NCBI GenBank assembly: GCA_016786925.1
Contig: JAEUTU010000129.1
Location: forward strand, 17,792 to 81,791
Source of the DNA: Bacteroidia bacterium
Lineage (GTDB): Bacteria > Bacteroidota > Bacteroidia > 2-12-FULL-35-15
Direction of reading: 5' to 3'
Length of the DNA stretch: 64,000 nucleotides
This document shows, one piece after another, positions 2,690 through 26,102 of this stretch (the first letter of the stretch is position 1; each line of letters starts with the position of its first letter). A model generated the notes under the pieces. The model was given only the letters and a program-made list of their open reading frames with translations, was not told where the DNA came from and did no database searches. A program made the position numbers and the translations under genes.

Positions 2690-3832
2690 ATGAGTAAAAA
2701 GATCACGATCGTAAACAGGCATTACCCTCCTAATATTAATATTACCGGTGAAAATGCTTGGGATCTCGCTAATTATTTAATAAATAAACATGGAATTGAT
2801 GTGTCCATTGTACACATTGACAGACATTATGAAGGCGGAGGAAACCGAAGAGCTCCAGTAGGAAATGTTTATCCTATCAAAACGATCTATCAAGGTAAAA
2901 ACAAGATCCTAAGTTATTTAAGCGGATTTTTGGATGGGTATTGGCTCATAAAAAAAGCCAGAAAGTTAGATCATGGACCTATCATTGTTATGACAAGTCC
3001 TCCCTTGCTTCCCATGTGGGCATCATTGCTATTAGGAAAGAAAAATAGAAACTGGATACTGTGGAGTATGGATCTTTTCCCGGAAGGCTATGCTGCAACA
3101 AATGTGATCGGGTATAATAACCCCATCTACAAATTCATTATCAAACAGACATACAGAAATGCTCCTAAAAAACTGATCGCATTAGGTCCAAAACAGCGCG
3201 ATGTTTTACATAAAAAGTATGCTAAAGAGATTGAGAGTGTTGTTTTACCCTGTGGCGTTTTTGTTGATCAGCATAAAACAAACGAAACACCGGGATGGAA
3301 AGCACATCCTGACAAGATCTATTTAGGATATGCAGGAAATTGCGGCACTCCTCATTCATCAGCATTCATAAAAGCTGTTATTGATGCGATTGATCCTGAG
3401 ACGCAACACATGGTGATTGCTGTATACGGGACAAAAGCAGAAGAAATAAAGGCCTATGCTCAAAACAAAAAAGGGATCACCCTACTGAACTCCATCCCTC
3501 GCAATGAATTGCACCATGTTGACATCCATTTAGTAACACTGTTAGAGACTTGGACACACATTGCTGTTCCATCAAAGGCTGTAAGCAGTGTTTGTTCGGG
3601 TGCTACCATCCTTTTCTGTGGAAGTAAGGAAAGCGACAACTGGCATTTGTTAAGCAGGGCGGGCTGGCTGATCGAAGAGAATGAGCAAATGCAAAACAAG
3701 GTGATCAATACACTTAAAAGCATTACCAAACAAGAAATCGAAACAAGAAAACAGAATGCTCATACCATTTCGGTAGAATTATCGGAACTCATCACAAAAA
3801 GCTATGACACCATTGCTTCCTGGGCGGAATAG
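2690..3832 (+). CDS. Glycosyltransferase, GT4-like (WcaI/WbuB-like N-terminal pattern)
   Basis: The N-terminus VNRHYPPNINITGENAWDLANYL resembles the N-terminal signature of WcaI/WbuB-type GT4 enzymes. Size is 380 aa. It sits in the glycan locus. Confidence 0.5.
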   Translation: MSKKITIVNRHYPPNINITGENAWDLANYLINKHGIDVSIVHIDRHYEGGGNRRAPVGNVYPIKTIYQGKNKILSYLSGFLDGYWLIKKARKLDHGPIIVMTSPPLLPMWASLLLGKKNRNWILWSMDLFPEGYAATNVIGYNNPIYKFIIKQTYRNAPKKLIALGPKQRDVLHKKYAKEIESVVLPCGVFVDQHKTNETPGWKAHPDKIYLGYAGNCGTPHSSAFIKAVIDAIDPETQHMVIAVYGTKAEEIKAYAQNKKGITLLNSIPRNELHHVDIHLVTLLETWTHIAVPSKAVSSVCSGATILFCGSKESDNWHLLSRAGWLIEENEQMQNKVINTLKSITKQEIETRKQNAHTISVELSELITKSYDTIASWAE

Positions 3833-3893: not shown

Positions 3894-4973
3894 ATGAATA
3901 TTGCTATTGTTACAGGTTCAGGTGGATTGATCGGAAGCGAATCAGTTACTTTTTTCTCTAAAAAATTTGATAAGATCATTGGAATTGACAATGATATGCG
4001 TGCTTACTTTTTTGGGAAAGAAGCGTCCACAAATTGGAATGTCAACCGTATTCAAGAGAGTGTTAGCAATTACGAGCATCATTCTATTGATATCCGTAAT
4101 TATTCCGAATTAGAAAAGATCTTTAACCAGTATGGAAACGACATTAAGTTGGTTGTCCACACAGCTGCACAACCTAGTCACGACTGGGCAGCCAAAGAAC
4201 CATTAACTGATTTCGGTGTAAATGCAACAGGAACACTTCACATGTTAGAGTTAACCCGTAAGTATTGTGAAAAAGCTGTTTTTATATTTACATCAACCAA
4301 TAAAGTGTACGGTGACAACCCTAATTTTCTTCCATTAGTAGAAACAGAAACACGTTGGGAGATAGCCGAAAATCATCCTTATTTTAAGAATGGCATTGAT
4401 GAACAAATGAGTTTAGACAATACCAAGCATTCTGTTTTTGGCGCATCTAAAGTTGCTGCCGATGTAATGGCACAAGAATACGGAAGATATTTTGATATGA
4501 ATGTGGGTATATTCAGAGGAGGCTGCCTAACTGGCCCTAATCATAGCGGTGCTCAGCTTCATGGATTTTTATCTTACTTAATGAAATGTACCTTATCCGG
4601 AAATTCTTATACCATATTCGGTTACAAAGGCAAACAAGTAAGAGATAACATTCATAGCTCCGACCTAGTAAACATGTTCTGGCATTTTTATCAGAATCCT
4701 AAACAAGGCGTTGCTTATAATGCCGGTGGTGGACGATTTGCGAATTGCTCTATGCTGGAAGCCATAATACTTTGCGAAAAGATAACCGGAAACAAATTAA
4801 ATTATTCATACAGTGATCAAGCACGTAGTGGCGATCATATCTGGTACATCAGCGATGTATCGAAATTTCAAAAGGATTATCCGGAATGGAAATATGAGTG
4901 GAATCTGGAAAATACATTGATCGACATGTACAACAATATGAGCAAAATGATCAATGTAAAAAATTGCGATTAA
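3894..4973 (+). CDS. NAD-dependent sugar epimerase/dehydratase (SDR family, CDP-paratose/tyvelose 2-epimerase-like)
   Basis: N-terminal Rossmann motif [11 protein letters not shown]. The YxxxK catalytic motif is in [19 protein letters not shown]. Length is 359 aa. Confidence 0.75.
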
Positions 4974-5042: not shown

Positions 5043-5768
5043 TTATCTGAAGAAAATACCATTGCATTGCAGCATCACTCCCGTTTTATTATCTGTAAAA
5101 GCAGGAGCTATACTTTTTAATTGAAAGCCATGCTGCTTCATAAAATCTAAAACATCCGGCAATAACCAATTCTGTCCTTCATACAATGGAATGATCGAAA
5201 TCTCCATTTCAATCCCTTTTGCCTTGGAAATGATCGACTGTGCACCTTTCAGCACTTCCTGCTCAAAACCTTGCACATCTATTTTTATAAAAATATTTTT
5301 GGCCTTATCAGCATGTTCTTTGGCAATTTGATCCAACGGATACACTTTCACTTTTTCTTTTCCAATGATCTTTGAATCCGGTGCACCTTCATAATGCGAG
5401 TCCAACATGTTTAGCAAAGTACTGCTGACAGAATTTGCTGAAATATTGATCTCAATATCCTGCTCTGAACTTCCGATCGCGCAACGCTCTGCAACCACCC
5501 AATTCGCATAGCTTTTGCTGGCAGCAACGATCTGTTGGTGAACCGCAGAAAGTGGTTCAAAAGAAACGACCTTGCCTGCATAGCCTGCATCCATTATTCC
5601 TCTGGCATATTGTCCGGCATTAGCACCGATATCAAAAACCAGATCAATATTATGATGCTGAAGTAATTTGATCCTTCTTAATTCCTCACTCGTAGCCGCA
5701 TTGTATTTACGGACAAGAATGCCAAATTTTTGGAAGAAATTCTTCGTGATGCGTTCTAAATTCGTCAT
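5043..5768 (-). CDS. FkbM-family SAM-dependent methyltransferase
   Basis: FkbM signature VFDIGANAGQYARG...VVSFEP. Length is 241 aa. Confidence 0.75.
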   Translation of the reverse strand: MTNLERITKNFFQKFGILVRKYNAATSEELRRIKLLQHHNIDLVFDIGANAGQYARGIMDAGYAGKVVSFEPLSAVHQQIVAASKSYANWVVAERCAIGSSEQDIEINISANSVSSTLLNMLDSHYEGAPDSKIIGKEKVKVYPLDQIAKEHADKAKNIFIKIDVQGFEQEVLKGAQSIISKAKGIEMEISIIPLYEGQNWLLPDVLDFMKQHGFQLKSIAPAFTDNKTGVMLQCNGIFFR

Positions 5769-5771
5769 TCT

Positions 5772-6473
5772 CTATGCTTTTTCATTTACAACACGAATGA
5801 TATCATCCGCAACAGTTACTGAATAATCCGGATTGATCTTTTTCACATAATTCGTCAATTCCGGTATGGTAGGATAATCATGCTTCCCCACAAATAAACG
5901 CGCATCATCTATGAGCATCGCATGATTTTTATTATGCTTAAATACTGCATCTATTTCGGCATAGATAGGGCACTCTATTTCACTTAAAGCGGTTGATCCG
6001 CCACAATAATGACCATCCAACCAGAATAAAGTTGTTTTATCTAGTGTAGGAGCTAGTTCTGGAAGCACTTTACCGCTATCTCCTTGCAGAAGATTAATAT
6101 GTGTATCATTCTTAAAACGCTTTTTGGCAGCTTCCCAGAACTCCACACTTAATTCTATAGAATAAAGCTTTTCAAAATTCTTCTTCTGTGCTTCCATCAT
6201 ATCGCCTCTGAATGTTCCTGTTTCAACCAAATAGCTACAGTTGTATTTCTTGCCAAATTCAGCAATGATCTGCTGTTTGATCTTGTGAGGACGAGGAACA
6301 GGCTGTTTATGAATATGCCAGTTCAATACAATAAAATCGATCTCTTTATCATCAATAAGTCCTTTCTTCACCCATTCGGCTACCATTGGATCTTTTTTCC
6401 ACTTATTTCTCAAATAAGGAATAACAAACTTCTTAGCCAGATTAACGATCGGACGTGGTAAATTACTTTTCAT
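5772..6473 (-). CDS. Class I SAM-dependent methyltransferase, TylF/MycF-like (sugar O-methyltransferase type)
   Basis: YLVETGTFRGDMM and LDGH resemble the macrocin-O-MT family motifs (LVECGVYKG / LDGD). The longest ORF in the track starts at a TTG (6506). The first ATG (MKSNLPRP) is at 6473, with a TAnnTTTG box 22 bp upstream. Confidence 0.5.
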   Translation of the reverse strand: MKSNLPRPIVNLAKKFVIPYLRNKWKKDPMVAEWVKKGLIDDKEIDFIVLNWHIHKQPVPRPHKIKQQIIAEFGKKYNCSYLVETGTFRGDMMEAQKKNFEKLYSIELSVEFWEAAKKRFKNDTHINLLQGDSGKVLPELAPTLDKTTLFWLDGHYCGGSTALSEIECPIYAEIDAVFKHNKNHAMLIDDARLFVGKHDYPTIPELTNYVKKINPDYSVTVADDIIRVVNEKA

Positions 6474-6494
6474 TCTATCAAATATTAGAAGGAC

Positions 6495-6502
6495 CAAAAA
6501 TA
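6495..6502 (-). promoter_or_regulatory. Candidate -7 box (TATTTTTG on the minus strand), 22 bp upstream of the ATG at 6473. It lies in the divergent region shared with the CstII-like gene.
   Basis: The plus strand reads caaaaata, which is TATTTTTG on the minus strand. Confidence 0.3.
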
Positions 6503-6600
6503 GCAAAAAAAAGCATATTTAGTCCTTTATTCAGCACAAAAGACCCACTCTGAATACAGAAATAAACTTAGTTTAATTACATTTGTAGCCGAACAGATAC

Positions 6601-7473
6601 ATGGCCTCAGAAACAACATACAAGAATTTTTCGAAAACGATCCTTCAAGGAATAAATACTTGTTTGTCGATCATGAAGATCGTTATCAAATCGAAGTTCA
6701 AGAATAAACTGCCTCATGCAGCTTCAAACACTTGTTATGTGCTGGCCAATGGACCTTCTTTGAAGCAATCACTGGAAAAGCATTATGAGAAAATAAGTAA
6801 GAGTGAACTTATTTGTGTGAACACCTTTTCGATCACCAATGAGTATAGACAACTCAAACCGAAATACTATGTAATGATCGATCCATTCTTCTGGAATGGG
6901 AAAACGGAAGTTGTAATAAACACGTTGAAGGCGATCACAGAAAAAACAGATTGGCCAATGTATTTACTTGTTCCACAAGCTGCAACAAAGTCTGTAGCAT
7001 TTCAAAACATAGTTGCCAAAAACAAGAATGTGATCCTGACTCCATTCAATTATACCGTTTTTAAAGGATATGAAAAGGCTGCATTCTGGTTTTACAGAAA
7101 GAATTTGGCCATGCCTCAAAGTCTGAATGTGGCTATAACGGCACTTTTTCTCTCTATTAATTTAGGATTCAAGGAAGTTTACTTATTAGGAGCTGATCAT
7201 ACCTGGCATGAAAATTTGCACATGAGTGATGACAATGTGCTACACACCAAGGTAACACACTTTTATGAGAATGATCAAGAGATCAAATACATTCCATTCC
7301 TGAAAGCCGGAAACCCGAATGTAACCCAAAAAGCGCATGAATTTTTTGATATCTGGAGCAGAACATTCAGCGCTTATATGATATTAGAACGCTATTCTAA
7401 ATTCCATCATTGCAAGATCTACAATGCAAGTGAAGTATCTTTCATTGATGCATTTACAAGAAAAAAGCTTTAA
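6601..7473 (+). CDS. CstII/Cst-I-like (GT42) sialyltransferase-family glycosyltransferase. It is a candidate nonulosonic-acid transferase. DUF115/Maf-like is the alternative family.
   Basis: CYVLANGPSLKQ and LNVAITALFLSINLGFKEVYLLGADHTW match, from memory, the Campylobacter CstII motifs IIAGNGPSLKE and ITSGVYMCAVAIALGYKEIYLSGIDFY. An alternative start is at 6673 (MKIVIK), which would give a CstII-like N-terminus directly before NGPSL. Confidence 0.55.
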   Translation: MASETTYKNFSKTILQGINTCLSIMKIVIKSKFKNKLPHAASNTCYVLANGPSLKQSLEKHYEKISKSELICVNTFSITNEYRQLKPKYYVMIDPFFWNGKTEVVINTLKAITEKTDWPMYLLVPQAATKSVAFQNIVAKNKNVILTPFNYTVFKGYEKAAFWFYRKNLAMPQSLNVAITALFLSINLGFKEVYLLGADHTWHENLHMSDDNVLHTKVTHFYENDQEIKYIPFLKAGNPNVTQKAHEFFDIWSRTFSAYMILERYSKFHHCKIYNASEVSFIDAFTRKKL

Positions 7474-8159
7474 TTCTTTTGATCCAATAACAACTCTGCT
7501 AGTTTAAAATCGATCAAATGATCGACATCAACAGATCTGTCGGTAGGCATGATGTAGGCATAGGTACCTGAATGAACAAACCCTTTGTTCTTCATGAACT
7601 CATCAACCGTGGAAACATAAATAGCGCCATTTAAGCGATAATAAACAGGTAATTGCTGCCTATTCTTCCCTTTAACCTCTTCACGGATAAATTCACTCAT
7701 CGAGCCATTTTCCGGCAAAGCATTCGACCATAATGGATGATGTTCATTTTCACAAACAGAGACGATCGCTGCAGCTTTCTTCTGGATCATCAGATCAATA
7801 GCAGCATCAATATCTTTTGAAGTTCTTAGAGGCGATGTAGGCTGCAATACAACGATCAGGTCAAAAACAACCTGTTGTTGTTTGTAATGATCTAATGCAT
7901 GAATGATCACATCTGTTGTAGAGGCTGTATCGGTTGCTAATTCAGCAGGGCGAAGTACAGGAACTTCCGCTCCATGTTGTTTAGCAACATCTGCAATAGC
8001 ATCATCATCAGTACTAACAAAAACAGTTCCCTGGTATTTTGACTTCAATGCAGCGTCAATAGAATAAGCAATCATGGGCTTTCCAGCCAATAGTTTTATA
8101 TTCTTTCCGGGCAAACCTTTGCTTCCACCTCTTGCTGGTATGATGTATAGAATATTCAT
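7470..8159 (-). CDS. neuA: CMP-nonulosonic acid synthetase (acylneuraminate cytidylyltransferase, NeuA/LegF family)
   Basis: N-terminal MNILYIIPARGGSKGLPGKNIKLLAGKPMIAYSIDAA is the classic CMP-NeuAc synthetase signature. 229 aa. Confidence 0.85.
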   Translation of the reverse strand: MNILYIIPARGGSKGLPGKNIKLLAGKPMIAYSIDAALKSKYQGTVFVSTDDDAIADVAKQHGAEVPVLRPAELATDTASTTDVIIHALDHYKQQQVVFDLIVVLQPTSPLRTSKDIDAAIDLMIQKKAAAIVSVCENEHHPLWSNALPENGSMSEFIREEVKGKNRQQLPVYYRLNGAIYVSTVDEFMKNKGFVHSGTYAYIMPTDRSVDVDHLIDFKLAELLLDQKN

Positions 8160-9211
8160 TAGAAATTAATGTGTTTTACATCCTCCTGGGCCTTATAAAA
8201 ATCTTCAATCCTACCAATATCTAACCAATAACTCAATATAGGGTAAGAGATCAATTTCTTATTGTTTTTTATCACTTCTTCCATAAAATGAGTAGCATCA
8301 AATGCAATTCCATCCGGAATAAGATCAATCAATTCCTTTTTAAATAAATAGATCCCTGCGTTTGAATAATATGTATAACGGGGCTTTTCAGAGAAAGACA
8401 ACACTCTGTCATCCTGATCGATCTCCATAACAGCATATGGAACATCCACATGGTAAGGAATCGTAGCTACCTGCATATCTGCTTTTGAGTCGATGAATTT
8501 TTTATAAAAATCATGAAAATCAATGTTCGTCAAAAGATCAGAATTCATCAACAGAACTACATCATTCTTTATGTCCTTTATCAATCGAACTGAACCAATT
8601 GTTCCTAATGGCATTTCTTCCTTTACAAAGTCGATGTTTAGTTCCTCCGTTTTGTGTGCATTTACACCTTCCACGATCTGATCGGCCATGTGGCGAACAG
8701 AGATCGAAAAATCATTTACTCCAAAACCGGCCAATCGTTCGATATTCCGAACAATGATCGGCTTCCCTCCTATTTCAAGCATTGGCTTAGGAGTTGTATC
8801 AGTAAGTGGTTTCAAACGCTCTCCTTTTCCTCCCGCCATCAAAACAGCATTCACAGGAATGATCGATCTCAATTTATCCAGATCTACGATCTTGATGATC
8901 TCTTTCTTTTTATTTAAAACAGGTATAAATCGTATTCCGGCATCTTTGTAGCGACTAATTTTTTCGAAATTATTTTCCCCTTCAACAAAGCACTTACTGT
9001 TTGTATTCATGAAAGAAGTGATGGAATCATCAATTGTTTTCCCATTCAACAAACCTCTACGAATATCACCATCAGTAAGAGATCCTACTAATTGCTGCTG
9101 ATCATTTACCACAAAAACAGCAATATTAGGAATCGCCAGATCATTGATCAACTTAAGTGATGTACGAGCTGTTTCCTTATCTGAAAGAATAAATTTATTT
9201 AGATCGATCAT
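8159..9211 (-). CDS. CBS-domain sugar-phosphate nucleotidyltransferase (PtmE-like, predicted GlcN/GlcNAc-1-P guanylyltransferase of legionaminic acid pathways)
   Basis: N-terminal tandem CBS-like region followed by an NTP-transferase G-loop LMAGGKGERLKPLTDTTPKPML. 1-bp overlaps with both neighbours. Confidence 0.7.
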   Translation of the reverse strand: MIDLNKFILSDKETARTSLKLINDLAIPNIAVFVVNDQQQLVGSLTDGDIRRGLLNGKTIDDSITSFMNTNSKCFVEGENNFEKISRYKDAGIRFIPVLNKKKEIIKIVDLDKLRSIIPVNAVLMAGGKGERLKPLTDTTPKPMLEIGGKPIIVRNIERLAGFGVNDFSISVRHMADQIVEGVNAHKTEELNIDFVKEEMPLGTIGSVRLIKDIKNDVVLLMNSDLLTNIDFHDFYKKFIDSKADMQVATIPYHVDVPYAVMEIDQDDRVLSFSEKPRYTYYSNAGIYLFKKELIDLIPDGIAFDATHFMEEVIKNNKKLISYPILSYWLDIGRIEDFYKAQEDVKHINF

Positions 9212-18458: not shown

Positions 18459-19429
18459 TAAGTTATAAGGCATTCATTAATGGATGGATCTCCTTTTTGT
18501 TTACGAACAAAGGTCAGAAGATTTTTTAAAAACAGTTTATGCAATTGTGCAGACTCACTATAAGTAGTCAGTTCGCAGTTTTCATTGGAAAGGATAGCAT
18601 CTACCACTTTATTGGTCAACTGACTTTGAAAAAGCATTTTGTGAGTTTGCTCTTCCCATGCCCACTTATTCTCCAACTTACTCACCCATATTTTTGTTTC
18701 AGCACCTTCTTGAATACTATAGCGTGCTGTGGGCGTTTGAATAAGAACAGAAACAGGTGAAATTTCCTTTGAATACGAAGTGATCGAAGCAAAATTATTT
18801 CCGGCAACAGCTCTGATTGTCCCTGTAAACTCAACATAACCGGCCCTTTTACTTTCCAAAATTTCATTATCTATCAATATATGATCCAGCTCAGGATCTG
18901 TTCTATCTGTCAGATAGCTGAACAAGTCCAGCATGTGAATTCCATTGCAACCCAAGCCCCATGAATTTCCAGTAACATTGAATTGAACGGGACCTGTTAA
19001 TTCACTTTTAATTGTTTTATAGAAGGGCATCATCCTACGTGGACAATTCACCCATGTTTTTATTTGATGCTGCTCTAGTAATTTTTCAACTACATTATAA
19101 TCTTCCAGATTAGGAAATAAAAATTTCTCTAATACAAAATGTTCAACTTTTGCATGCTTTACTAATTGTTCGATAACAACTCTTCGAACTTTTGAATTCG
19201 TAGCCACAATCGCAACATCGATTTTTTTGTGCAATTGATCTACTGACCCCAAAAAGGCTATACGTCCTTTGAATGCTGCTGCGACTTCGTTAAATCTGGC
19301 TTCCGCAACATTCAAAGAATCTTGAGAGGGATCCATCACTTGAATATCTAATTGATGTTCACATGTAGCTAAAGCCTGCAAATGCCTACTACCTAATTGC
19401 CCCGCACCAATCAATACAATATTTTTCAT
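18458..19429 (-). CDS. Gfo/Idh/MocA-family NAD(P)-dependent oxidoreductase
   Basis: MKNIVLIGAGQLGSRHLQALA N-terminal dinucleotide-binding motif. 323 aa. Confidence 0.75.
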   Translation of the reverse strand: MKNIVLIGAGQLGSRHLQALATCEHQLDIQVMDPSQDSLNVAEARFNEVAAAFKGRIAFLGSVDQLHKKIDVAIVATNSKVRRVVIEQLVKHAKVEHFVLEKFLFPNLEDYNVVEKLLEQHQIKTWVNCPRRMMPFYKTIKSELTGPVQFNVTGNSWGLGCNGIHMLDLFSYLTDRTDPELDHILIDNEILESKRAGYVEFTGTIRAVAGNNFASITSYSKEISPVSVLIQTPTARYSIQEGAETKIWVSKLENKWAWEEQTHKMLFQSQLTNKVVDAILSNENCELTTYSESAQLHKLFLKNLLTFVRKQKGDPSINECLIT

Positions 19430-20091
19430 CTTACGATCTGTTTTAATTTTTCTGCTATCCGTTCTGCATACAATTTATTACCTAATACATTCAGATGTGA
19501 ATCAATGGGATGTAAATATTTTTCATAATCGATCTGATTCAGTAAAAATGAATGAACATCCACAAGCAGATCATCTTTTATATACTCATTTAAAACACTA
19601 TTAAATCTGGTAATTGACTCATTGGCTCCCGGTGTATCTTTATTTTGAAACGCATTTACAGGAGCAATGTTTACCCATATCAATTTACCCGAGAACTCTT
19701 CTTTCACTGTGCTGATAGCTCTTTCAAATTCATTAATACTTGTCCATGTTTTAGAGCGAATATACTTAATAAAAAAAGCCCTATTCATACGAATGATCTT
19801 ACGTATCAGCTTATTAAAAAAGGAAGTTGAAATAGTCCTTTCATGGCTGATCACACGGGGATATGCATCTACAATCCCTGATTGAATAACAATAATATCT
19901 GCATCACGGTGTGTATTTATCAAACTTGGCATATCAGTCATTTTCCGGAATGACAAATAATCAACTATAAAAGTATGTTCCGGAAATAATTTTTGAATGA
20001 TCACAGGAAATGTTTCACTTTCATTCACCTCCACAACATTATTATGAATGCGAGGTCCGCCATAACTGTCTGCAAGGATCACTATCTTCAT
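19426..20091 (-). CDS. SGNH/GDSL-like hydrolase-fold protein (possible sugar O-acyl esterase/transferase). First gene of the operon.
   Basis: MKIVILADSYGG N-terminus with a conserved Ser in an SGNH-type block. 221 aa. 4-bp overlap with the downstream gene. Confidence 0.4.
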   Translation of the reverse strand: MKIVILADSYGGPRIHNNVVEVNESETFPVIIQKLFPEHTFIVDYLSFRKMTDMPSLINTHRDADIIVIQSGIVDAYPRVISHERTISTSFFNKLIRKIIRMNRAFFIKYIRSKTWTSINEFERAISTVKEEFSGKLIWVNIAPVNAFQNKDTPGANESITRFNSVLNEYIKDDLLVDVHSFLLNQIDYEKYLHPIDSHLNVLGNKLYAERIAEKLKQIVR

Positions 20092-20111
20092 ATTTTAAGA
20101 ATAAAAGCATT

Positions 20112-20119
20112 CAAATTTA
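20112..20119 (-). promoter_or_regulatory. Candidate -7 box (TAAATTTG on the minus strand), 21 bp upstream of the operon's first start codon (20091)
   Basis: The plus strand reads caaattta. It lies in the 147-bp divergent intergenic region. Confidence 0.3.
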
Positions 20120-20207
20120 CTTGATTTTTCGAGATAAAGATGAAGAATTTGAACTCCATAAATTTTGTTAATTTGAAGACAAACAATTGCAGAACAGAGT
20201 TTTAATT

Positions 20208-20215
20208 TATCTTTG
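20208..20215 (+). promoter_or_regulatory. Candidate -7 box TATCTTTG, 23 bp upstream of the flippase ATG (20239)
   Basis: TAnnTTTG match. TTTG motifs lie at 20164-20167 and 20172-20175, but the spacing is longer than canonical. Confidence 0.3.
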
Positions 20216-20238
20216 CTGTAGACAACGATCGTGCAAAC

Positions 20239-21720
20239 ATGGGAATCATTGAAAAACAAGCAACTAAAAATGTGATCTACTCCTATTTAGGAGCATTTTT
20301 GGGCTTTATTACGATCATTTTCTCATCGCATGCATTAAGTCCAGATGAAAATGGGCTAACTCGTATCCTTCTTTCATTATCGATCTTAATGGCGCAATTT
20401 GCCGGTTTAGGCTTTAACACGGTCACCATCCGTTTGTTTCCATATTTCAGAGATCACGACAAAGGACATCATGGTTATCTATTTTATGGTATTCTGGTTA
20501 CATTGGCCGGCTTTTCTTTGTGTGTCATTTTCTATTTTTTATCAAAAGATTATCTGATCGAAAGTAATCAGGAGAAGTCAAAATTATTTGTCGATTACAC
20601 TCATTATCTTTTACCTCTAACGCTTTTTACTTTATTCTTCAATCTCTTTGATTATTACTTAAGAGCCTGCTATAACTCTGTGATCGGCTCCTCTTCAAAA
20701 GAATTCTTTCAACGGATCATAATACTCATTGTACTTGCCGCATTCTTTTTTAAGTGGATCGACTTTTCTGCTTTTGTATTATTATATGTTGCAGCTGTAT
20801 GTTTTCCTACCTTTATTTTACTGTATTACATTATCAAGTTAAAAGAATGGCATATTAAGCCGGTTAGAGGATTTGTAAGCAAAGAACTTAGAAAAGAGAT
20901 CATTAAACTGAGTTTATATTCCATATTAGCTGGAGGAGCTGGTGTTTTGATCTCTAACATTGATATTATCATGGTGAATCAAAAATTAGGATTAGCTCAA
21001 GCTGGTATCTACGGAATCGCATTTTATTTTGGAACGATCATCATTATTCCTTCCCGTTCATTACTAAGAATTGCTATGAGTGTGGTGTCAGAAGCATTCA
21101 AAAAAGATGACATTAAAGAGATCCACAGCATTTATAACAAATCATGCAACACACAATTAACGATTGGATTATTATTATTCATAGGAATCTGGGGAAACAT
21201 TGATAACATTATGCAATTACTCCCTCCAGAGTACAGAGGCGGTGAAAATGTGATCCTTTTTATTAGTCTAGGCTATTTAGTAGATATGGCCACAGGCATC
21301 AATTATGTGATCGTATTAACATCAAAATATTATCGTTTCGACACTTATTTTATGCTGATCGTTTTAACATTGACGATTGCAACCAATTATATTTTAATTC
21401 CTTTGTATGGAATAACAGGTTCTGCAATAGCTACAGCAATCACCATCTCATTCTATAATATTTTAAGATGGCTGTTCTTATATTATAAATTCAAGATGCA
21501 GCCCTATGATCTAAACACGATCAAATTGCTTTTAATAGGTGTGATCTCTTTCCTTCCGGGGTATTTCATTCCTGCAACAGGCATATTGTTTCTTGATCTG
21601 GCAATAAAAAGCAGTATTATTGGTGGTCTTTTTATACTGCTGATTCTAAAAATGGAAGCCGCTCCCGATATCAATGCGAAGATCAGAAAGAACCTGTTAC
21701 GCTTTCACATAAAACTATAA
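20239..21720 (+). CDS. Oligosaccharide/polysaccharide flippase (Wzx-like, MOP superfamily)
   Basis: 493 aa with about 12-14 predicted TM helices throughout. Typical polysaccharide biosynthesis protein architecture. Confidence 0.7.
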   Translation: MGIIEKQATKNVIYSYLGAFLGFITIIFSSHALSPDENGLTRILLSLSILMAQFAGLGFNTVTIRLFPYFRDHDKGHHGYLFYGILVTLAGFSLCVIFYFLSKDYLIESNQEKSKLFVDYTHYLLPLTLFTLFFNLFDYYLRACYNSVIGSSSKEFFQRIIILIVLAAFFFKWIDFSAFVLLYVAAVCFPTFILLYYIIKLKEWHIKPVRGFVSKELRKEIIKLSLYSILAGGAGVLISNIDIIMVNQKLGLAQAGIYGIAFYFGTIIIIPSRSLLRIAMSVVSEAFKKDDIKEIHSIYNKSCNTQLTIGLLLFIGIWGNIDNIMQLLPPEYRGGENVILFISLGYLVDMATGINYVIVLTSKYYRFDTYFMLIVLTLTIATNYILIPLYGITGSAIATAITISFYNILRWLFLYYKFKMQPYDLNTIKLLLIGVISFLPGYFIPATGILFLDLAIKSSIIGGLFILLILKMEAAPDINAKIRKNLLRFHIKL

Positions 21721-21766: not shown

Positions 21767-24295
21767 TTAGTCTTTCTTTTGTCGCAATCCCAACACAACT
21801 GCTCCTCCTAACATTCCGAACAGCACCAAACAACTTACTAAAGAGATCTTTTCACCTGTGTAGTATTTCGTTGGCTCAAATTTAAACTCGATCTTATGCT
21901 CACCGGCAGGTACACGCATTGCGCGTAAGATCCAATCACCTGAGAAATATGTTTTTTTCTCCCCATCAACATACACATTCCAACCATCTTTATAAAACAC
22001 TTCTGAGAATACAGCTAACTGCTCAGAAGATGTTTTAGATTCATAGGTCAAATGATTAGGTTTATACTCTGCCAAGCGGATCTTTGCGTTTGCATCAGCG
22101 CTAGGTTTAAAACCATCTAATTCAGATTGATAACGTTTGTCAACTACAATCGTTTTTGCAGGGTCGATCTCACCTAATGTCGCCAATTCCTGATCTGCAT
22201 TATCCACCATTTTTATCTCATCAACAAACCAAGCATTACCCAATGCATATCTGTTTTGCAATGGCTGTGCTTCCGGATTGTAAATGATATATTTAGTATT
22301 TAACATATTTAAAACACCTTGCTTTGAAAAAGTATATCTCAAAGCCGAATCGGTAGGATTAGATCTCAAAGTGTTTCCAATATTTTGAATATTAGAAGTG
22401 ATATGCGTTTCAATCAATTCTTGATATCTTCTCAATTTGGCCGGGTGGTAACCACCAACAGATTTGTGAAAATAAGAAGTAGCTGCATCGTTAAACGGGC
22501 CTTCTTTCGGACCGGCAAGATTCAGCACTCTGTAATTCGGATCCTTATCCTCCAAAATAGCAAGATCTGCTGCACTAGGAGTAAATGGCGTTTCTGCCTT
22601 TTTCTTATCACTAAAGCTTTTATCGTTCAAATGACGCTTGTCCACTCCCCACAGATCGATAAGGATCACCAAACCTAAAAGTGGGATCATGATATTGGCA
22701 TTTATCTTATTCTTCAAATATAACCATAGTACTAATGCACCCAACACTACAAAAAAGAAACTTCTCAGGGCATCGGCTTTAAACAAAGCAATACGGGCTG
22801 TTTCCACATTATCCATAACTTGTTGCGCAACCTGAGCACCATTACTTTTTTGAATACTTTCAAACATTTGCGCATCTGCTACTGATGTAAAATCTGTAAG
22901 AGAAGGCATCAAATAAAATAACAATGACAATCCACCTGTTAGACCAAAGGAAACAAAAAAGGCATTTTGTACACTCAACTCCGTTTTGGTAAAAGGCAAA
23001 CGAACTTTATCCTTGATCAAACCCGGATTCTTGATCAATTTATCGACTACTAAAATGGCTAAAAGGGGAATACAAAACTCGGCAATCACAAGAATTTGCG
23101 AAACGGCTCTAAACTTGTTATACATTGGGAAATAATCTAAAAACAGCTCTGTGAGCCACATCATATTCTTTCCCCACGACAATGTGATGGATAAGATTGT
23201 ACCCGCCAATAAAACCCATTTCATTCTGCCTTCCACCACAAACAATCCAAATACAAAAAGGAAAATCACGATCGCTCCTGCATAAGGAGACATCGTAAAC
23301 AATTGATCTCCCCAATATTGCGGCATACTACCGATGTATTCTTTCATTTGAGGATCTACATCTTTTAAGGCATTTTTATTTTCGGAAACAGGAATATTAG
23401 AAGAAGTACCTTTAAATCCCGGAATCATTAAGGTCATCACCTCTGCCTTACCCATGCTCCATTGAGTTGCATAATCTTTATCTACCCCACTCGTCTGGTT
23501 AGCACCATCTTTCGTTAATTCAGAAGGTCCACGAATGGTGTATTTAGAGTATTCATAAGTGCTCCAAAGGTTTGCAAAATTACAGCCAACACCAATCACA
23601 CCTGCGACTAGAAACACAGCAATTCCTTTTCCTATTTCTGCATACATTTTCTCCTTTATCTTTATGGCCCACTCGATCAACATATAGATCAAAAGGAAAA
23701 TAAAGAAGTAATAGGTCATCTGAATATGGTTACACAATAGCTCCAACGCAAAGAACAAGGCTGTCAATGCTCCACCCAACAAATATTTGCCTCTGTTAAC
23801 AAGAATAACACCTCCAAAAAGTGGTGGCAAATAACCTAATGCTGCCGCTTTGGTAATATGTCCTGCATCCAAAATAATAAACGTATAAGCTGTAAATGCA
23901 TACGCAATGGCTCCAACTATTGAAAGCCAGGGATTAACCCTTAGTATGATCAGTAAAATAAAAAAGCCTAGCATGAGGTTGAATAACATCATAGCCGGAG
24001 AAGACATACCTAGGGTTAGTATCGTTCTTACTTCATATAAAAAGTTATTCGGGTAGCGAATAGAAATTTGATAAGCCGGCATCCCACCAAACATAGAATT
24101 GGTCCACAAAGCCTCTTCTTTTTGCTGCTCTCTGAAATCGGAGATCTCTTTTGACATGGCTTTATTCAGCACCATATCACTTTGCACGATCACTTTATCT
24201 TTCAGCATCGGACTGAAGTATCCGTATGTCAGACCAACAAATAAAAGAACAGCTGTTATAACCGGGATTAACGCTTTTAGATTTATGTTTTTCAT
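21767..24295 (-). CDS. YfhO-family polytopic membrane protein (lipid-linked glycan glycosyltransferase family)
   Basis: 842 aa. Multi-TM N-terminal two thirds plus a C-terminal soluble beta-rich domain and a terminal TM helix. This matches YfhO-family topology. Confidence 0.7.
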   Translation of the reverse strand: MKNINLKALIPVITAVLLFVGLTYGYFSPMLKDKVIVQSDMVLNKAMSKEISDFREQQKEEALWTNSMFGGMPAYQISIRYPNNFLYEVRTILTLGMSSPAMMLFNLMLGFFILLIILRVNPWLSIVGAIAYAFTAYTFIILDAGHITKAAALGYLPPLFGGVILVNRGKYLLGGALTALFFALELLCNHIQMTYYFFIFLLIYMLIEWAIKIKEKMYAEIGKGIAVFLVAGVIGVGCNFANLWSTYEYSKYTIRGPSELTKDGANQTSGVDKDYATQWSMGKAEVMTLMIPGFKGTSSNIPVSENKNALKDVDPQMKEYIGSMPQYWGDQLFTMSPYAGAIVIFLFVFGLFVVEGRMKWVLLAGTILSITLSWGKNMMWLTELFLDYFPMYNKFRAVSQILVIAEFCIPLLAILVVDKLIKNPGLIKDKVRLPFTKTELSVQNAFFVSFGLTGGLSLLFYLMPSLTDFTSVADAQMFESIQKSNGAQVAQQVMDNVETARIALFKADALRSFFFVVLGALVLWLYLKNKINANIMIPLLGLVILIDLWGVDKRHLNDKSFSDKKKAETPFTPSAADLAILEDKDPNYRVLNLAGPKEGPFNDAATSYFHKSVGGYHPAKLRRYQELIETHITSNIQNIGNTLRSNPTDSALRYTFSKQGVLNMLNTKYIIYNPEAQPLQNRYALGNAWFVDEIKMVDNADQELATLGEIDPAKTIVVDKRYQSELDGFKPSADANAKIRLAEYKPNHLTYESKTSSEQLAVFSEVFYKDGWNVYVDGEKKTYFSGDWILRAMRVPAGEHKIEFKFEPTKYYTGEKISLVSCLVLFGMLGGAVVLGLRQKKD

Positions 24296-24396: not shown

Positions 24397-24404
24397 TATT
24401 TTTG
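24397..24404 (+). promoter_or_regulatory. Candidate -7 box TATTTTTG, 19 bp upstream of the ATG at 24423
   Basis: Direct TAnnTTTG match in the YfhO/dioxygenase divergent region. Confidence 0.3.
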
Positions 24405-24422
24405 CCTATCAATTCTAAAAAA

Positions 24423-25235
24423 ATGAAAAATTTGTTGAATCCTTCATTATTAGATGAAGCAAAAATAAAAGAGATACGTTCTGCATTCGAAAATGCGCAA
24501 CCTTGCAAACATGTGGCTGTTCCTAATTTTTTGAATGAAGAATTAGCCAATACACTATATGAGAATTTTCCAAAGTTGGAAGCATTGAATGTAAAAAGAA
24601 AGAGTATCAATGAAAACAAATCGGAAGAATACCATTTAGAACGCTACCACCCTGCTTTCAATCAGTTACGCGATTTTATGAATTCACCTGAAATGTATGA
24701 GTGGATTAGCAAAGTAACTGGGATTGAAGACTTGCGCTCTACTTATGATTCTTTGGGATCGGGAGTTCATCAAGGCGGACCGGGGAGTTTTGTTGACGTG
24801 CATGTGGATATAAACATGAATCCTGTTGCCAACCTTCACCGAAGAATAAATGTATTGATCTATTTAAATAAACATTGGAAAGATGAGTATGGCGGAGCAT
24901 TGGAGTTCTGGGACAAGGATGTAAAAAATTGCATTTCCAAAGTAATGCCTTATTTCAACCAGGCTGCGATCATGGTGACGGATGAAACATCCTATCATGG
25001 ATATGCAAAGATCAATATCCCTGATCATGAGAGTCGCAAATCATTTTACTGTTACTACTACACTCCTGCCGGAAAAGATTTTGTTTTCCGTGATTCGAGA
25101 TTCAAAACCCGCCCGGATGAAAGTGTAACTAAGACTGCTATAACCGAAGTTAAAGAAACATTAAAGATCAATATCAAACGTTTCTTAAAAGCTATAGGTA
25201 TAAAATCACTCGACTTCCAAGACAAAAATAAATAA
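24423..25235 (+). CDS. 2OG-Fe(II) dioxygenase, prolyl-4-hydroxylase-like
   Basis: HVDVHVD (HxD) ... RRINVLIYLNKHWKDEYGGALEFW ... SYHGY pattern resembles the P4Hc domain. The track ORF begins at a TTG (24402); the first ATG is at 24423. Confidence 0.55.
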   Translation: MKNLLNPSLLDEAKIKEIRSAFENAQPCKHVAVPNFLNEELANTLYENFPKLEALNVKRKSINENKSEEYHLERYHPAFNQLRDFMNSPEMYEWISKVTGIEDLRSTYDSLGSGVHQGGPGSFVDVHVDINMNPVANLHRRINVLIYLNKHWKDEYGGALEFWDKDVKNCISKVMPYFNQAAIMVTDETSYHGYAKINIPDHESRKSFYCYYYTPAGKDFVFRDSRFKTRPDESVTKTAITEVKETLKINIKRFLKAIGIKSLDFQDKNK

Positions 25236-26029
25236 TGTCACTTCACAATAAGGTAGTTTGGATAACAGGAGCTTCATCAGGAATTGGTGAAGCTCTTGCT
25301 TATGTTTGTGCTAAACAAGGGGCTAAACTTGTGCTTTCTGCACGAAGAGAAAAAGAATTGGAACGTGTAGCAGAAAATTGCAAACTCGACAAAAAACATA
25401 TTCTCATACTACCACTTGACCTAGAACATACCAAACATGTTTCAGAAAAGGTTGAAACAGTAGTTAAAGAATTCGGAAGAATTGATGTATTGGTCAACAA
25501 TAGCGGTATGGGGCACCGTACCAAAGCTGTAAATACCTCTACCGAAATCGACAGAAAAGTAATGGAAGTGAATTTCTTTGGAACCATTAACCTTACCAAA
25601 GCAGTGGCCCAACAAATGCAAAAACAGCAATCAGGTAAGCTGGTGGTTATCAGTAGTATCATGGGGAAATACGGAATGCCACTTTACTCTACATACGCTG
25701 CTTCTAAACATGCATTGTATGGCTATTTTGAATCGTTGCGACAAGAACTTTTTAAAGACAACATCAAAGTATTGATCGTTAGTCCGGGTTTTATTAATAC
25801 CGATGTTAGCACAAAACTATTGCGGGAAGACGGATCGGAATACGGTATAAAAAGCGATGCTCAAGAGAAAGGAATGAGTGCCATGGATTGTGCAAAAGGG
25901 ATAGTAAATGCCATAAATTCAAATAGGGACCACAAATTCGTTGGAAAGTATGAGATCTTCTCCGTTTATGTAAAACAGTATTTCCCTAAGATTTTTTACA
26001 AACTGATGCGCAAAATGACCAAGGAGTAA
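25235..26029 (+). CDS. Short-chain dehydrogenase/reductase (SDR)
   Basis: VWITGASSGIGEALAY (TGxxxGIG). YAASKHAL (YxxxK). TAATG overlap with the upstream gene. Confidence 0.85.
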   Translation: MSLHNKVVWITGASSGIGEALAYVCAKQGAKLVLSARREKELERVAENCKLDKKHILILPLDLEHTKHVSEKVETVVKEFGRIDVLVNNSGMGHRTKAVNTSTEIDRKVMEVNFFGTINLTKAVAQQMQKQQSGKLVVISSIMGKYGMPLYSTYAASKHALYGYFESLRQELFKDNIKVLIVSPGFINTDVSTKLLREDGSEYGIKSDAQEKGMSAMDCAKGIVNAINSNRDHKFVGKYEIFSVYVKQYFPKIFYKLMRKMTKE

Positions 26030-26102
26030 ATCAGCTCCCCGACTGATATTAATCATCTTTTTATTTATAATTCCTCCCTAACCTTGTAACCAAGTTTAGG
26101 AT

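Follow-up and report, generated by a model that had tools for sequence, protein, structure and literature searches.

The window, by which we mean the whole 64-kb stretch of DNA that was analysed, is centred for our purposes on a 290-aa open reading frame, which is listed with its neighbours in Table 1. An earlier note on this DNA had given the boundaries of the gene, and these agreed exactly with the ORF list; the opposite strand is rich in stop codons. The note had also pointed out an NGPSL motif and a block of the pattern (I/V)ALGFKE(I/V)YLxGxD in the translation. The motif is present at residues 50-54, within VLANGPSLKQ, and INLGFKEVYLLGADH fits the pattern except at its second residue, which is N and not A. 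NGPSL is preceded by a 42-residue N-terminal helix, whereas CstII lacks this helix and has its motif at residues 9-13. The highest mean Kyte-Doolittle value over 19 residues was 1.46, with no strongly hydrophobic segment, and the helix at the N-terminus is charged and non-hydrophobic, unlike a signal peptide (judged without a dedicated predictor), all of which agrees with a cytoplasmic location for an enzyme with a CMP-sugar donor.

Table 1. Features of the window around the putative legionaminic acid (Leg) transferase gene (aa, amino acids)
Feature	Position	Strand	Basis or remark
GT4-like (WbuB/WcaI-like, GT-B fold) glycosyltransferase, second glycosyltransferase of the locus	2690..3832	+	Weak WcaI match, E=0.0027
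NAD-dependent sugar epimerase/dehydratase	3894..4973	+	PF01370; conserved together with the GT4-like gene
FkbM-family methyltransferase	5043..5768	-	PF05050 and TIGR01444
Divergent 233-244-aa protein, probably a class I methyltransferase	5772..6506	-	Sub-threshold Methyltransf_11/25 matches only
Compact DUF115/Maf-like (GT42-related) putative Leg transferase gene	6601..7473	+	290 aa, ATG start
NGPSL motif, predicted nucleotide-binding loop	6748..6762	+	Residues 50-54; translation, alignment to CstII N9-G-P-S-L13
INLGFKEVYLLGADH block, beta-strand and G-x-D-H loop	7156..7200	+	Residues 186-200; aligned to CstII ALGYKEIYLSGIDF (G152/D154)
CMP-nonulosonate synthetase (LegF-like, CTP_transf_3)	7470..8159	-	PF02348, E=2e-29; PseF-family match below equivalog cutoff
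CBS + nucleotidyltransferase (PtmE-like sugar-1-phosphate nucleotidyltransferase)	8159..9211	-	PF00483 and PF00571; conserved in Leg-type loci
NeuD/PglD-family N-acetyltransferase (LegH-like)	9208..9825	-	TIGR03570, 194 bits (cutoff 160.8)
1123-aa secreted PKD/Ig-repeat protein with CHU_C type-IX secretion (T9SS) sorting domain, inside Leg operon	9829..13200	-	PF18911, PF13585, PF19081
Hydrolysing UDP/GDP-HexNAc 2-epimerase (NeuC/LegG)	13190..14314	-	TIGR03568, 407 bits (cutoff 236)
Nonulosonate synthase (NeuB/LegI)	14296..15321	-	TIGR03569, 488 bits (cutoff 400)
LegC aminotransferase	15318..16460	-	TIGR04181, 563 bits (cutoff 420)
LegB NAD-dependent 4,6-dehydratase	16453..17445	-	TIGR04180, 516 bits (cutoff 475)
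Two GFO/IDH-like oxidoreductases and a GDSL-like hydrolase, operon head	17514..20091	-	Weak Pfam matches
Wzx-like polysaccharide/oligosaccharide flippase, 493 aa	20239..21720	+	PF01943
YfhO/PgfM1-like large membrane protein (putative GT-C glycosyltransferase)	21767..24295	-	PF09586, E=2.5e-9; weak PgfM1 match

Judged by its HMM matches, a complete Leg pathway is encoded beside the transferase gene. The CMP-nonulosonate synthetase gene runs towards the transferase gene and overlaps its 3' end tail-to-tail, and the genes from the PtmE-like protein to LegB come after it, which bears out the placing of the gene next to a nonulosonate (NulO) operon in the earlier note; the transferase gene converges on the Leg operon and is not a member of it. 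The three accessory genes at the operon head are possibly Leg-modifying. The PKD/CHU_C protein encoded within the operon has a signal peptide, a Ser/Thr content of 23%, and 14 D-S/T-[AILVMT] motifs against 4.9 ± 2.1 in shuffled sequences. This insertion recurs in a 62%-identical related locus (L001) and is missing from two others (L005 and L007), and the window has many T9SS cargo genes; the protein was therefore rejected as a dedicated acceptor and is kept as a side note, its role as a possible glycan acceptor and its membership of the system being speculative.

The Wzx-like flippase has orthologues, 60-67% identical, that end the NulO clusters of loci L003 and L007, where orthologues of the YfhO/PgfM1-like protein adjoin the flippase as well. 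The putative class I methyltransferase contains a Rossmann-type LVETGTFRGD stretch and is conserved in the window's clade. The GT4-like protein had no Pfam match of its own; PF13579/PF13439 are found in its homologues, whose database names are 'glycosyltransferase family 4' or 'WbuB', and the 380-aa protein was accordingly discarded as a candidate sialyltransferase-like GT-B enzyme. Pfam scans of the window's ORFs (at least 120 aa, or at least 80 aa up to 16 kb) found no other sialyltransferase-like proteins (GT38, GT52, GT80 or TagB-like) across the 64 kb, and no further glycan genes among the housekeeping genes between 29 and 64 kb.

The earlier note had placed the protein with the CstII-like (GT42) sialyltransferases and had named a DUF115/Maf-type enzyme as its fallback; the profile searches did not support the first assignment and supported the second. 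PF01973 (DUF115/MptE-like) matched residues 30-203 with 45.8 bits (cutoff 34.6) and was also matched by 38 of 38 relatives, whereas PF06002 (GT42) gave no match to the 290-aa protein even at E≤10 and weak matches to 2 of the 38 relatives (best E=0.013). All true GT42 proteins that were checked carried PF06002, and some of them matched PF01973 as well, so the two Pfam families overlap. An NCBIfam search of the 290-aa protein and a single-sequence phmmer search of it against the PDB each returned no match. When profiles of the family were searched against the PDB, CstII and Cst-I were the only significant matches: a 38-sequence profile reached CstII chains at E=6.6e-4, with both motifs aligned, a 140-sequence profile reached Cst-I at E=8.2e-5, and neither of them reached Maf 5MU5 or MptE. 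With hhalign, the probabilities against GT42 were 94.5% (CstII, E=8e-8, 149 columns) and 96.4%, and the profile-profile alignment of the family to GT42 spanned just 59 N-terminal columns. Structural comparison indicated a sialyltransferase-like modified GT-A fold with the Maf core as the best structural match, 208 residues being aligned with Maf vs 155 with MptE (PDB 8SD5). The resemblance to CstII that the earlier note had recognised is, to judge from these profile and fold comparisons, genuine remote homology above chance. The 290-aa protein is nonetheless not a true CstII-type (GT42) sialyltransferase, and has its place on a separate branch of short proteins within the DUF115/Maf family, to which GT42 is related. 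With a DUF115 match and a sialyltransferase-like fold, neither of the outcomes that the earlier note would have taken as a refutation occurred.

The GNGPS loop of CstII (residues 8-13) and its (Y/F)KE(I/V)YLxGxD strand-loop (144-154) are matched in the alignment by residues 49-54 and 189-199 of the 290-aa protein. Across 149 divergent representatives of the family, N50, G51, P52 and S53 are 96-100% conserved, G197 100%, D199 94%, and H200 91%; the donor-site positions common to the family and CstII (N9-G-P-S12, N31, and G152-x-D154) are 94-100% conserved, and an Asp at position 94, aligned to CstII N51, is 91% conserved. Tyr156, Tyr162, Arg129, and His188, whose roles in CstII are described in PMC4202792 (His202 being the Cst-I residue paired with His188), are invariant or nearly so in 26 GT42 sequences, and these are the residues that the family has not kept. 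Ser/Thr201 occupies the position aligned to Tyr156, the position aligned to Arg129 is variable (Ser174 in the 290-aa protein), Tyr162 stands opposite unaligned sequence, and His188 has no conserved counterpart, the hhalign alignment with CstII stopping before both. His246, a secondary-structure analogue of His188, was dropped as its counterpart because it is just 42% conserved. Asp94 and Asp199 are conserved acidic candidates; the acidic catalytic residues of the M. magneticum Maf are E324 and D415 (bioRxiv 10.1101/2020.06.03.131540), and no sequence alignment to 5MU5 was obtained.

A profile search gave 3,921 hits. The family comprises 914 clusters at 50% identity (E≤1e-30), and its members, of about 290 aa (238-341 aa among representatives), bear the database names 'hypothetical', 'DUF115' or 'MptE-like' throughout; in the literature we found no published characterisation of short DUF115/PF01973 members outside flagellar Maf. 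All 77 related genome loci recovered were from Bacteroidota, which together with the T9SS sorting domains in the window agrees with the host phylum proposed in the earlier note. A CMP-nonulosonate synthetase homologue adjoins the DUF115 gene in most related loci, and in L001 the DUF115 gene overlaps a cytidylyltransferase gene that runs in the same direction. Neighbourhoods were counted within 8-kb flanks in the 49 loci whose sequence reached 6 kb or more on each side of the gene. In 38 of these, a CMP-NulO synthetase, a NeuB-type synthase or both lay no more than 8 kb away, often overlapping the DUF115 gene or within 60 bp of it, and 10 had no NulO gene within 8 kb. The type of NulO pathway follows sequence clade, the window's clade being all Leg-type and one large clade mostly pseudaminic acid (Pse)-type, and donor specificity thus appears to track the local pathway. 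Other recurrent neighbours were a Wzx-like gene within 8 kb (28/49), an FkbM-family methyltransferase within about 1 kb (25/49), and a YfhO-like gene within the 8-kb flanks (7/49), the last lying within 1 kb of the DUF115 gene in the Pedobacter loci L044, L046, and L047. Culturable carriers of the DUF115 gene include Arcicella aurantiaca DSM 22214 (L056) and Emticicia sp. CRIBPO (L084), both Leg-type, and the Pse-type Pedobacter puniceum HX-22-1 (L044). Enzymes of GT2 and GT4 occur in related loci, and T9SS cargo genes lie inside or next to the Pse clusters of L003 and L006. Among the six related loci for which gene tables were made, one had pterin genes, 8 kb distant, and neither these six nor the Pfam scans of the window contained flagellar genes.

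Since its members stand almost always beside Leg/Pse synthesis genes, the family is a good candidate for the enzyme that attaches Leg or Pse to a surface glycan, and the idea in the earlier note that the gene links the Leg pathway to its acceptor is, as a candidate function, strongly backed by this conserved neighbourhood. We consider it probable that the 290-aa protein is a single-domain glycosyltransferase for nonulosonic acids, soluble and cytoplasmic, from a compact Bacteroidota branch of the Maf/GT42 superfamily, and that it depends on CMP-Leg and caps a lipid-linked glycan. The sialyltransferase-like (modified GT-A) superfamily would hold Maf, GT42, and a separate Bacteroidota branch of about 290 aa. 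CMP-legionaminic acid would be made by the neighbouring operon, as the equivalog HMMs suggest, and would be bound by the GNGPS loop, Asn74, Asp94, and the Gly197-x-Asp199 loop, if the CstII alignment is a guide; Leg would then be moved to an acceptor hydroxyl, the base probably being the family-invariant His200, His220 or Asp283. Gene context points to a lipid-linked oligosaccharide as the most likely acceptor. Assembly of this glycan would fall to the GT4-like enzyme, its methylation to the neighbouring methyltransferases, and its export to the Wzx-like flippase, and the Leg-capped glycan may end on surface proteins or lipopolysaccharide. Weighing against this reading are the 10 loci with no NulO gene within 8 kb, the convergent position of the gene in the window, and the lack of a conserved counterpart to the GT42 His188. 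In the sister clades, the same enzyme family lies beside pseudaminic acid clusters.

Membership of PF01973 and the closeness of the Maf core would also fit the mode of Maf proper, that is, direct cytoplasmic O-glycosylation of protein Ser/Thr with Leg, here on a non-flagellar target such as the T9SS PKD/CHU_C protein. The secreted, Ser/Thr-rich repeat protein inside the Leg operon of the window and L001, and the T9SS cargo genes at the Pse clusters of L003 and L006, are in keeping with such a target. We nevertheless think this unlikely: the domains that Maf has at its N- and C-terminal ends are missing (290 aa vs 632 aa in 5MU5), flagellar genes are absent from the loci named above, cytoplasmic glycosylation is awkward for T9SS cargo, which crosses the inner membrane, the embedded cargo gene is absent from L005 and L007 and such cargo is common in the window anyway, and a Wzx-like flippase accompanies the family more consistently. 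To our knowledge, moreover, Bacteroidota are a phylum without flagella.

A bona fide GT42 sialyltransferase of the CstII/Cst-I/Lic3A type, in which a His acts as general base and Tyr and Arg contact the phosphate, would account for the shared NGPSL and GFKE(I/V)YLxGxD motifs, for the PDB sequence matches being confined to CstII and Cst-I, for the hhalign probabilities, and for a size and single-domain layout similar to GT42, and a PF01973 match is found in some true GT42 proteins. This reading becomes quite improbable, however, given the PF06002 result, the replacement of Tyr156 and Arg129 and the unaligned sequence opposite Tyr162 and His188, the restriction of the profile-profile alignment to N-terminal columns, and the greater structural closeness of Maf.

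By analogy with CsbB/GtcA/YfhO, Leg might instead pass from CMP-Leg to undecaprenyl phosphate, be flipped by the Wzx-like protein, and be added to an extracytoplasmic acceptor by the YfhO/PgfM1-like GT-C. The DUF115 gene does occur with Wzx-like and YfhO-like genes in the window, in L003 and L007, and in the three Pedobacter loci, and the YfhO-like protein weakly matches PgfM1, a streptococcal protein O-glycosyltransferase. We give this route a slim chance, as we know of no enzyme of Maf/GT42-like fold that uses a polyprenyl phosphate acceptor, the 290-aa protein has no membrane segment, a YfhO-like gene lies within the flanks of so few loci, and the presence of GT2 and GT4 enzymes at the loci suggests that the carrier bears an oligosaccharide and not a monosaccharide.

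The prospects are poorer still for the GT4-like GT-B neighbour as the true Leg transferase with the DUF115 protein as an accessory or sugar-modifying enzyme, a reading drawn by analogy with the GT-B (TagB-like) enzymes of Tannerella forsythia. The genetically supported NulO transferases of Bacteroidota are all GT-B (PMC5420450), and the window's clade has kept a GT-B glycosyltransferase; the GT4-like gene is confined to that clade, however, whereas the linkage of DUF115 to NulO genes is family-wide and includes both Leg and Pse clusters, the homologues of the GT4-like protein are WbuB/GT4-like and not TagB-like, and the adjoining NDP-sugar epimerase/dehydratase suggests a different donor. An MptE-like pyrophosphokinase or other nucleotide-dependent enzyme that is not a glycosyltransferase is the least probable reading of all, given that the family profiles reach only GT42 by sequence, that the context is nonulosonate and seldom pterin, and that the structural alignment with MptE is shorter than that with Maf.

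The prediction of a Leg-capping transferase is conventional guilt-by-association on an already annotated domain. More broadly, and as a tentative extension that we hold to be rather doubtful, the compact DUF115 family may serve environmental Bacteroidota in general as their cytoplasmic Leg/Pse-capping transferase, replacing the Tannerella GT-B enzymes non-homologously. It would then form a conserved module together with a Wzx-like flippase dedicated to it and a GT-C membrane enzyme of the YfhO/PgfM1-like kind, which would be a candidate periplasmic transferase or ligase for adding outer glycans to exported proteins, T9SS proteins among them, at D-S/T-hydrophobic motifs. Native Leg/Pse transferases are scarce, the known candidates being large flagellin-specific Maf or Tannerella GT-B enzymes, and a 2024 paper describes information on legionaminyltransferases as very limited (PMC11356810), in line with the remark in the earlier note that few are characterised. 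A small, soluble, single-domain family could provide tractable enzymes for the chemoenzymatic synthesis of Leg/Pse glycoconjugates, and its hundreds of divergent members, in clades that track Leg or Pse, offer a possible model for donor switching between stereoisomeric nonulosonates. The family would also mark sites of surface decoration with sialic-acid-like sugars in environmental Bacteroidota, and its recurrent flippase and YfhO-like partners provide specific candidate proteins for those steps in the export of Bacteroidota glycans that are given as unknown in a 2025 review (PMC12871550).

Among known systems, the Maf flagellin transferases (M. magneticum 5MU5, C. jejuni Maf4, and those of C. 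botulinum and G. kaustophilus) have a central catalytic domain structurally similar to the 290-aa protein, and share with the compact family PF01973 and a neighbourhood of Pse/Leg biosynthesis; for Maf proteins with a DUF115 domain, the transferred sugar is Pse, Leg, Neu5Ac or Kdo (bioRxiv 10.1101/2020.06.03.131540; PMC9298399). They differ in exceeding 600 aa, with flanking domains that the compact family lacks, in being flagellar, whereas the compact family has Wzx-like flippases, methyltransferases, and other glycosyltransferases as partners, and in using flagellin Ser/Thr as acceptor where the compact family probably uses a glycan. The GT42 enzymes CstII and Cst-I of C. jejuni and Lic3A of H. 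influenzae have the fold, the GNGPS loop, and the KE(I/V)YLxGxD strand-loop in common with the compact family, which lacks their PF06002 domain and, at aligned positions, their Tyr156, Tyr162, Arg129, and His188; the 290-aa protein has the extra N-terminal helix, and a beta-meander where CstII has its lid, and the GT42 donor is CMP-Neu5Ac, with Gal or Sia of lipooligosaccharide as acceptor, whereas Leg/Pse is predicted from gene context as donor sugar for the compact family. MptE, the archaeal 6-hydroxymethyl-7,8-dihydropterin pyrophosphokinase, aligns in structure with no sequence-profile match, and it belongs to pterin metabolism, whereas the compact family is bacterial (Bacteroidota) and stands in a nonulosonate context. 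A parallel in gene arrangement is TFUB4_00887 / Tanf_01245 of Tannerella forsythia (PMC5420450), from the same phylum, where the transferase gene likewise lies beside a CMP-NulO locus with a methyltransferase gene between or adjacent, and the two kinds of transferase probably have the same role, the capping of a surface glycan with Leg or Pse. The Tannerella transferases, of 442-445 aa, are GT-B/TagB-like and carry DXD, D/E-D/E-G, and HP motifs (PMC5420450), whereas the 290-aa protein has a Maf/GT42-like fold and not a GT-B one, so that the compact family would be a non-homologous replacement.

The target gene, opposite which no frame is open, has a sound start codon, since homologues cover its 290-aa protein from residue 1, and the protein carries no strongly hydrophobic segment (19-residue hydropathy maximum 1.46). 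The ORF listing and translation confirmed the ORF and the NGPSL motif (residues 50-54, within VLANGPSLKQ) described in an earlier note, whose second motif block is also present, as INLGFKEVYLLGADH (residues 186-200), with Asn in place of the Ala described at its second position. That note had favored a CstII-like sialyltransferase of family GT42 and held a DUF115/Maf-type enzyme in reserve, and it was the latter that the HMM comparison upheld: the protein matched PF01973 (MptE-like, formerly DUF115/Maf_flag10) over residues 30-203 (E=7.4e-12; 45.8 bits, cutoff 34.6) and did not match PF06002 (CST-I), which represents GT42 in Pfam, even at E<=10. PF01973 was matched by all 38 aligned relatives and PF06002 by two, weakly (E of at least 0.013); no NCBIfam model matched the target.

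An AlphaFold2 model built with the family alignment was confident (pLDDT 89.6, pTM 0.86) and predicts a Rossmann-like alpha/beta core with a 30-residue helix at the N-terminus, a beta-meander at residues 206-242, and, at the C-terminus, a long helix and a strand. Its leading structural match (score, aligned residues, E) was the Maf glycosyltransferase of M. magneticum (5mu5; 14.6, 208, 4e-6), the core of which is a modified GT-A fold with a donor site closely like that of CstII (bioRxiv 10.1101/2020.06.03.131540). This match would suit a Maf-like enzyme that glycosylates protein directly, an unlikely alternative; the branch to which the target belongs, in a newly recognized trait, is without the Maf flanking domains, and no sequence alignment of the family to 5mu5, whose catalytic residues E324/D415 were shown by mutagenesis (bioRxiv 10.1101/2020.06.03.131540), could be obtained to map those residues. 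Further matches were archaeal pyrophosphokinase MptE (8sd5; 12.7, 155, 3.5e-4), Cst-I (2p56; 11.6, 170, outside the top 50 matches listed), SteA (9hmy; 10.8, 165, 7.9e-3), mammalian GT29 sialyltransferases (8.3-8.6, 150-163, 5.5e-4 for ST8SiaIII), and thiamine pyrophosphokinases (7-8.6, 109-138, outside the top 50 matches listed).

The 3' end of the target gene overlaps, tail to tail, a minus-strand operon encoding the full legionaminic acid pathway by Pfam and TIGR models, which bears out the adjacency to a nonulosonic acid (NulO) operon that had been noted earlier. Its PtmE-like enzyme is consistent with the established GDP-GlcNAc route of C. jejuni (summarized in PMC11356810). Upstream of the operon, Pfam placed two GFO/IDH-like oxidoreductases and a GDSL-like protein.

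Features of the window and of related loci
Sequence	Feature	Position	Strand	Remarks
Window	TPR protein, 252 aa	1919-2677	+	eukaryote-named RMD1-3 domain
Window	GT4/WbuB-like protein, 380 aa	2690-3832	+	further out from target; homologues GT4/WbuB-like
Window	NDP-sugar epimerase/dehydratase	3894-4973	+	further out from target
Window	FkbM methyltransferase	5043-5768	-	divergent from target
Window	Probable methyltransferase	5772-6506	-	divergent from target
Window	Target ORF	6601-7473	+	ATG start, 290 aa
Window	CMP-nonulosonate synthetase	7470-8159	-	PF02348
Window	CBS + nucleotidyltransferase protein, PtmE type	8159-9211	-	
Window	NeuD/PglD-family acetyltransferase	9208-9825	-	TIGR03570, above cutoff
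Window	Secreted PKD/Ig-repeat protein, 1123 aa	9829-13200	-	CHU_C type-IX sorting domain (Pfam)
Window	NeuC-type hydrolyzing 2-epimerase	13190-14314	-	
Window	NeuB-type synthase	14296-15321	-	
Window	LegC	15318-16460	-	TIGR04181, 563 bits vs cutoff 420
Window	LegB	16453-17445	-	TIGR04180, 516 bits vs cutoff 475
Window	Wzx-like flippase	20239-21720	+	beyond oxidoreductase/GDSL genes
Window	YfhO-like membrane protein, 842 aa	21767-24295	-	beyond oxidoreductase/GDSL genes
Window	2OG-Fe(II) oxygenase, short-chain dehydrogenase, radical-SAM/SPASM protein	24402-27143	+	directly after glycan locus
Window	SpecificRecomb site-specific recombinase, 658 aa	27140-29116	-	PF10136, E=4.5e-188
Window	WD40 beta-propeller protein, 306 aa, with leucine-rich-repeat and CHAP-domain neighbors	42322-43242; 41128-41739	-; +	WD40 protein has strong eukaryote-type WD40 matches
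L001	PKD/CHU_C insertion	16048-18774		
L003	Wzx-like/YfhO-like pair	19019-20873		
L007	Wzx-like/YfhO-like pair	18288-20873		
L006	RMD1-3 TPR protein	13154-13921		Peptidase_M1 gene adjoins
L007	RMD1-3 TPR protein	6015-6770		Peptidase_M1 gene adjoins

The PKD/CHU_C gene splits the operon between its LegH-like and LegG-like genes. The same insertion occurs in L001, a related locus with transferase identity of only 62%. In the PKD/CHU_C protein of the window the Bacteroidota O-glycosylation motif D-S/T-[AILVMT] occurs 14 times, compared with 4.9+-2.1 times after shuffling; the pseudaminic acid (Pse) clusters of loci L003 and L006 also have T9SS cargo genes (BNR + Por_Secre_tail) within or next to them. 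A recombinase in this position, beside surface-glycan genes, might point to control that is invertible or mobile. The TPR protein recurs near DUF115/NulO loci of several relatives (67-78% identity), which may reflect synteny alone and not function. Housekeeping genes fill the window from 29 kb onward. The WD40 protein and the proteins it adjoins, one small with leucine-rich repeats and one with a CHAP domain, are unrelated to the target finding.

When 1.84 billion cluster representatives were searched with a profile, 3,921 matched at E<=1e-3, 914 of them at E<=1e-30, and the best 150 were nearly all full-length proteins of 280-310 aa; homologues were named only "hypothetical", "DUF115", or "MptE-like". 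All 77 loci found (one genome per GTDB species) were in Bacteroidota, cultured hosts among them including Pedobacter puniceum, P. glucosidilyticus, Arcicella aurantiaca, Arcicella sp., and Emticicia sp.; confinement to this phylum is not proven, because the search patterns of the scan were narrow. NulO genes adjoin the DUF115 gene in 5/5 independent metagenomic loci with gene tables: L001 repeats the window layout, except that its DUF115 gene overlaps the cytidylyltransferase gene and is read in the same direction as it; L005 and L007 are of legionaminic acid (Leg) type; and L003 and L006 are of Pse type with PseB/C/F/H/I-like genes. When window proteins and L003 Pse proteins were compared by tblastn with 82 loci, 49 of which had at least 6 kb on each side and were counted, a CMP-NulO synthetase and/or NeuB-type synthase lay <=8 kb away in 38, and no NulO gene was in range in 10. 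Clustering of DUF115 sequences placed the window in a clade of 13 loci that is Leg-type wherever the type could be called, as are Cytophagales-type clades; one large clade consists mostly of Pse-type loci, and two sub-clades within it are Leg-type. The family thus tracks whichever nonulosonate pathway is present, and nothing argues more strongly for its acting on the CMP-sugar.

In the same 49 loci we found a Wzx-like flippase in 28, an FkbM methyltransferase in 25, and a YfhO-like protein in 7, detection of the last being curtailed by the 8-kb flanks. A three-component route via Und-P-Leg and the YfhO-like enzyme would draw on this recurrent partner but is unlikely: the low count and the lack of a strongly hydrophobic segment in the target speak against it. 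The flippase and 842-aa YfhO-like protein make up a conserved terminal pair of Leg-type and Pse-type clusters, seen also in loci L044, L046, and L047; in Pedobacter the pair lies <1 kb from the DUF115 gene, and P. glucosidilyticus has it although no NulO genes lie close by. The YfhO-like protein has a weak match to PgfM1, a streptococcal protein O-glycosyltransferase. As the Bacteroidota O-OTase and outer-glycan ligase are undiscovered according to a 2025 review (PMC12871550), this GT-C-like protein may be worth a look.

The Leg transferase could instead, though this is unlikely, be the 380-aa GT4-like neighbor, which has no Pfam match of its own and is a divergent GT-B glycosyltransferase escaping current models; it belongs to a well-populated Bacteroidota family, and more distant relatives bear Glyco_trans_4 domains and GT4/WbuB names. 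A Pfam scan of the 64-kb window (ORFs of at least 120 aa; at least 80 aa up to 16 kb) yielded no sialyltransferase-like ORF of any other family, and it is the DUF115 family that follows the NulO type.

An MptE-like pyrophosphokinase is another unlikely alternative. PF01973 and PF06002 matches coexist in several genuine GT42 proteins, so both families belong to one superfamily. Precomputed dual matches occur in the Campylobacter-type GT42 proteins P0285, P0305, P0316, P0351, P0375, P0380, and P0384; the families therefore overlap, and "MptE-like" is misleading for bacterial members. The resemblance of the target family to CstII is real by sequence comparison: CstII chains were the sole PDB matches of a 38-sequence profile (E=6.6e-4; residues 42-204 with CstII 4-162), Cst-I was the sole match of a 140-sequence profile built from representatives of 50%-identity clusters (E=8.2e-5), and hhalign gave 94.5% probability with CstII (E=8e-8, 149 columns) and 96.4% with a 26-sequence GT42 alignment (E=1.2e-9), the latter over 59 N-terminal columns only. 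Mapped from the CstII alignment, with conservation over 149 divergent family representatives, CstII N9-G-P-S12 corresponds to N50-G-P-S53 (96-100%), N31 to N74 (97%), N51 to D94 (91%), and G152-x-D154 to G197-x-D199 (100%/94%). Tyr156, Tyr162, and His188, the catalytic base of GT42 (PMC4202792), are invariant in the 26-sequence alignment and Arg129 nearly so, whereas none is kept in the target family: Tyr156 is replaced by Ser/Thr201, the Arg129 position is variable, and the CstII alignment ends short of Tyr162 and His188. His246, at the N-terminus of a helix, would be the His188 counterpart on secondary-structure grounds, but its conservation reaches only 42%. With these hallmarks lost and His200, Trp202, Asn212, His220, Asn275, and Asp283 invariant in its own family, a true GT42 sialyltransferase is disfavored, and the target is best read, on these residues, as a superfamily member and not a GT42 member.

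To infer a candidate NulO transferase from a DUF115 gene beside a NulO cluster is conventional, the domain being already annotated. What is new is a large, compact branch, in Bacteroidota at every genome locus recovered, with an active-site signature different from GT42, clades that track Leg or Pse clusters, and recurrent flippase and YfhO-like partners. No characterized short, non-flagellar DUF115 transferase was found in the literature searched, and Leg transferases in general are poorly known (PMC11356810), in agreement with the earlier note.

Domain family, fold, donor-site motif conservation, and Leg/Pse pathway linkage are observed; beyond them, we propose that the target would bind CMP-Leg in the cytoplasm and pass Leg to an acceptor hydroxyl, most likely on a lipid-linked oligosaccharide that the GT4-like enzyme would assemble, the adjacent methyltransferases methylate, and the Wzx-like flippase export. 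This mechanism parallels Tannerella forsythia, in which the general protein O-glycan is capped by a Leg or Pse derivative and a methyltransferase gene separates the transferase gene from the CMP-NulO locus beside it (PMC5420450). The Tannerella transferases are GT-B/TagB-like proteins of 442-445 aa (PMC5420450), for which the target would be a non-homologous substitute.
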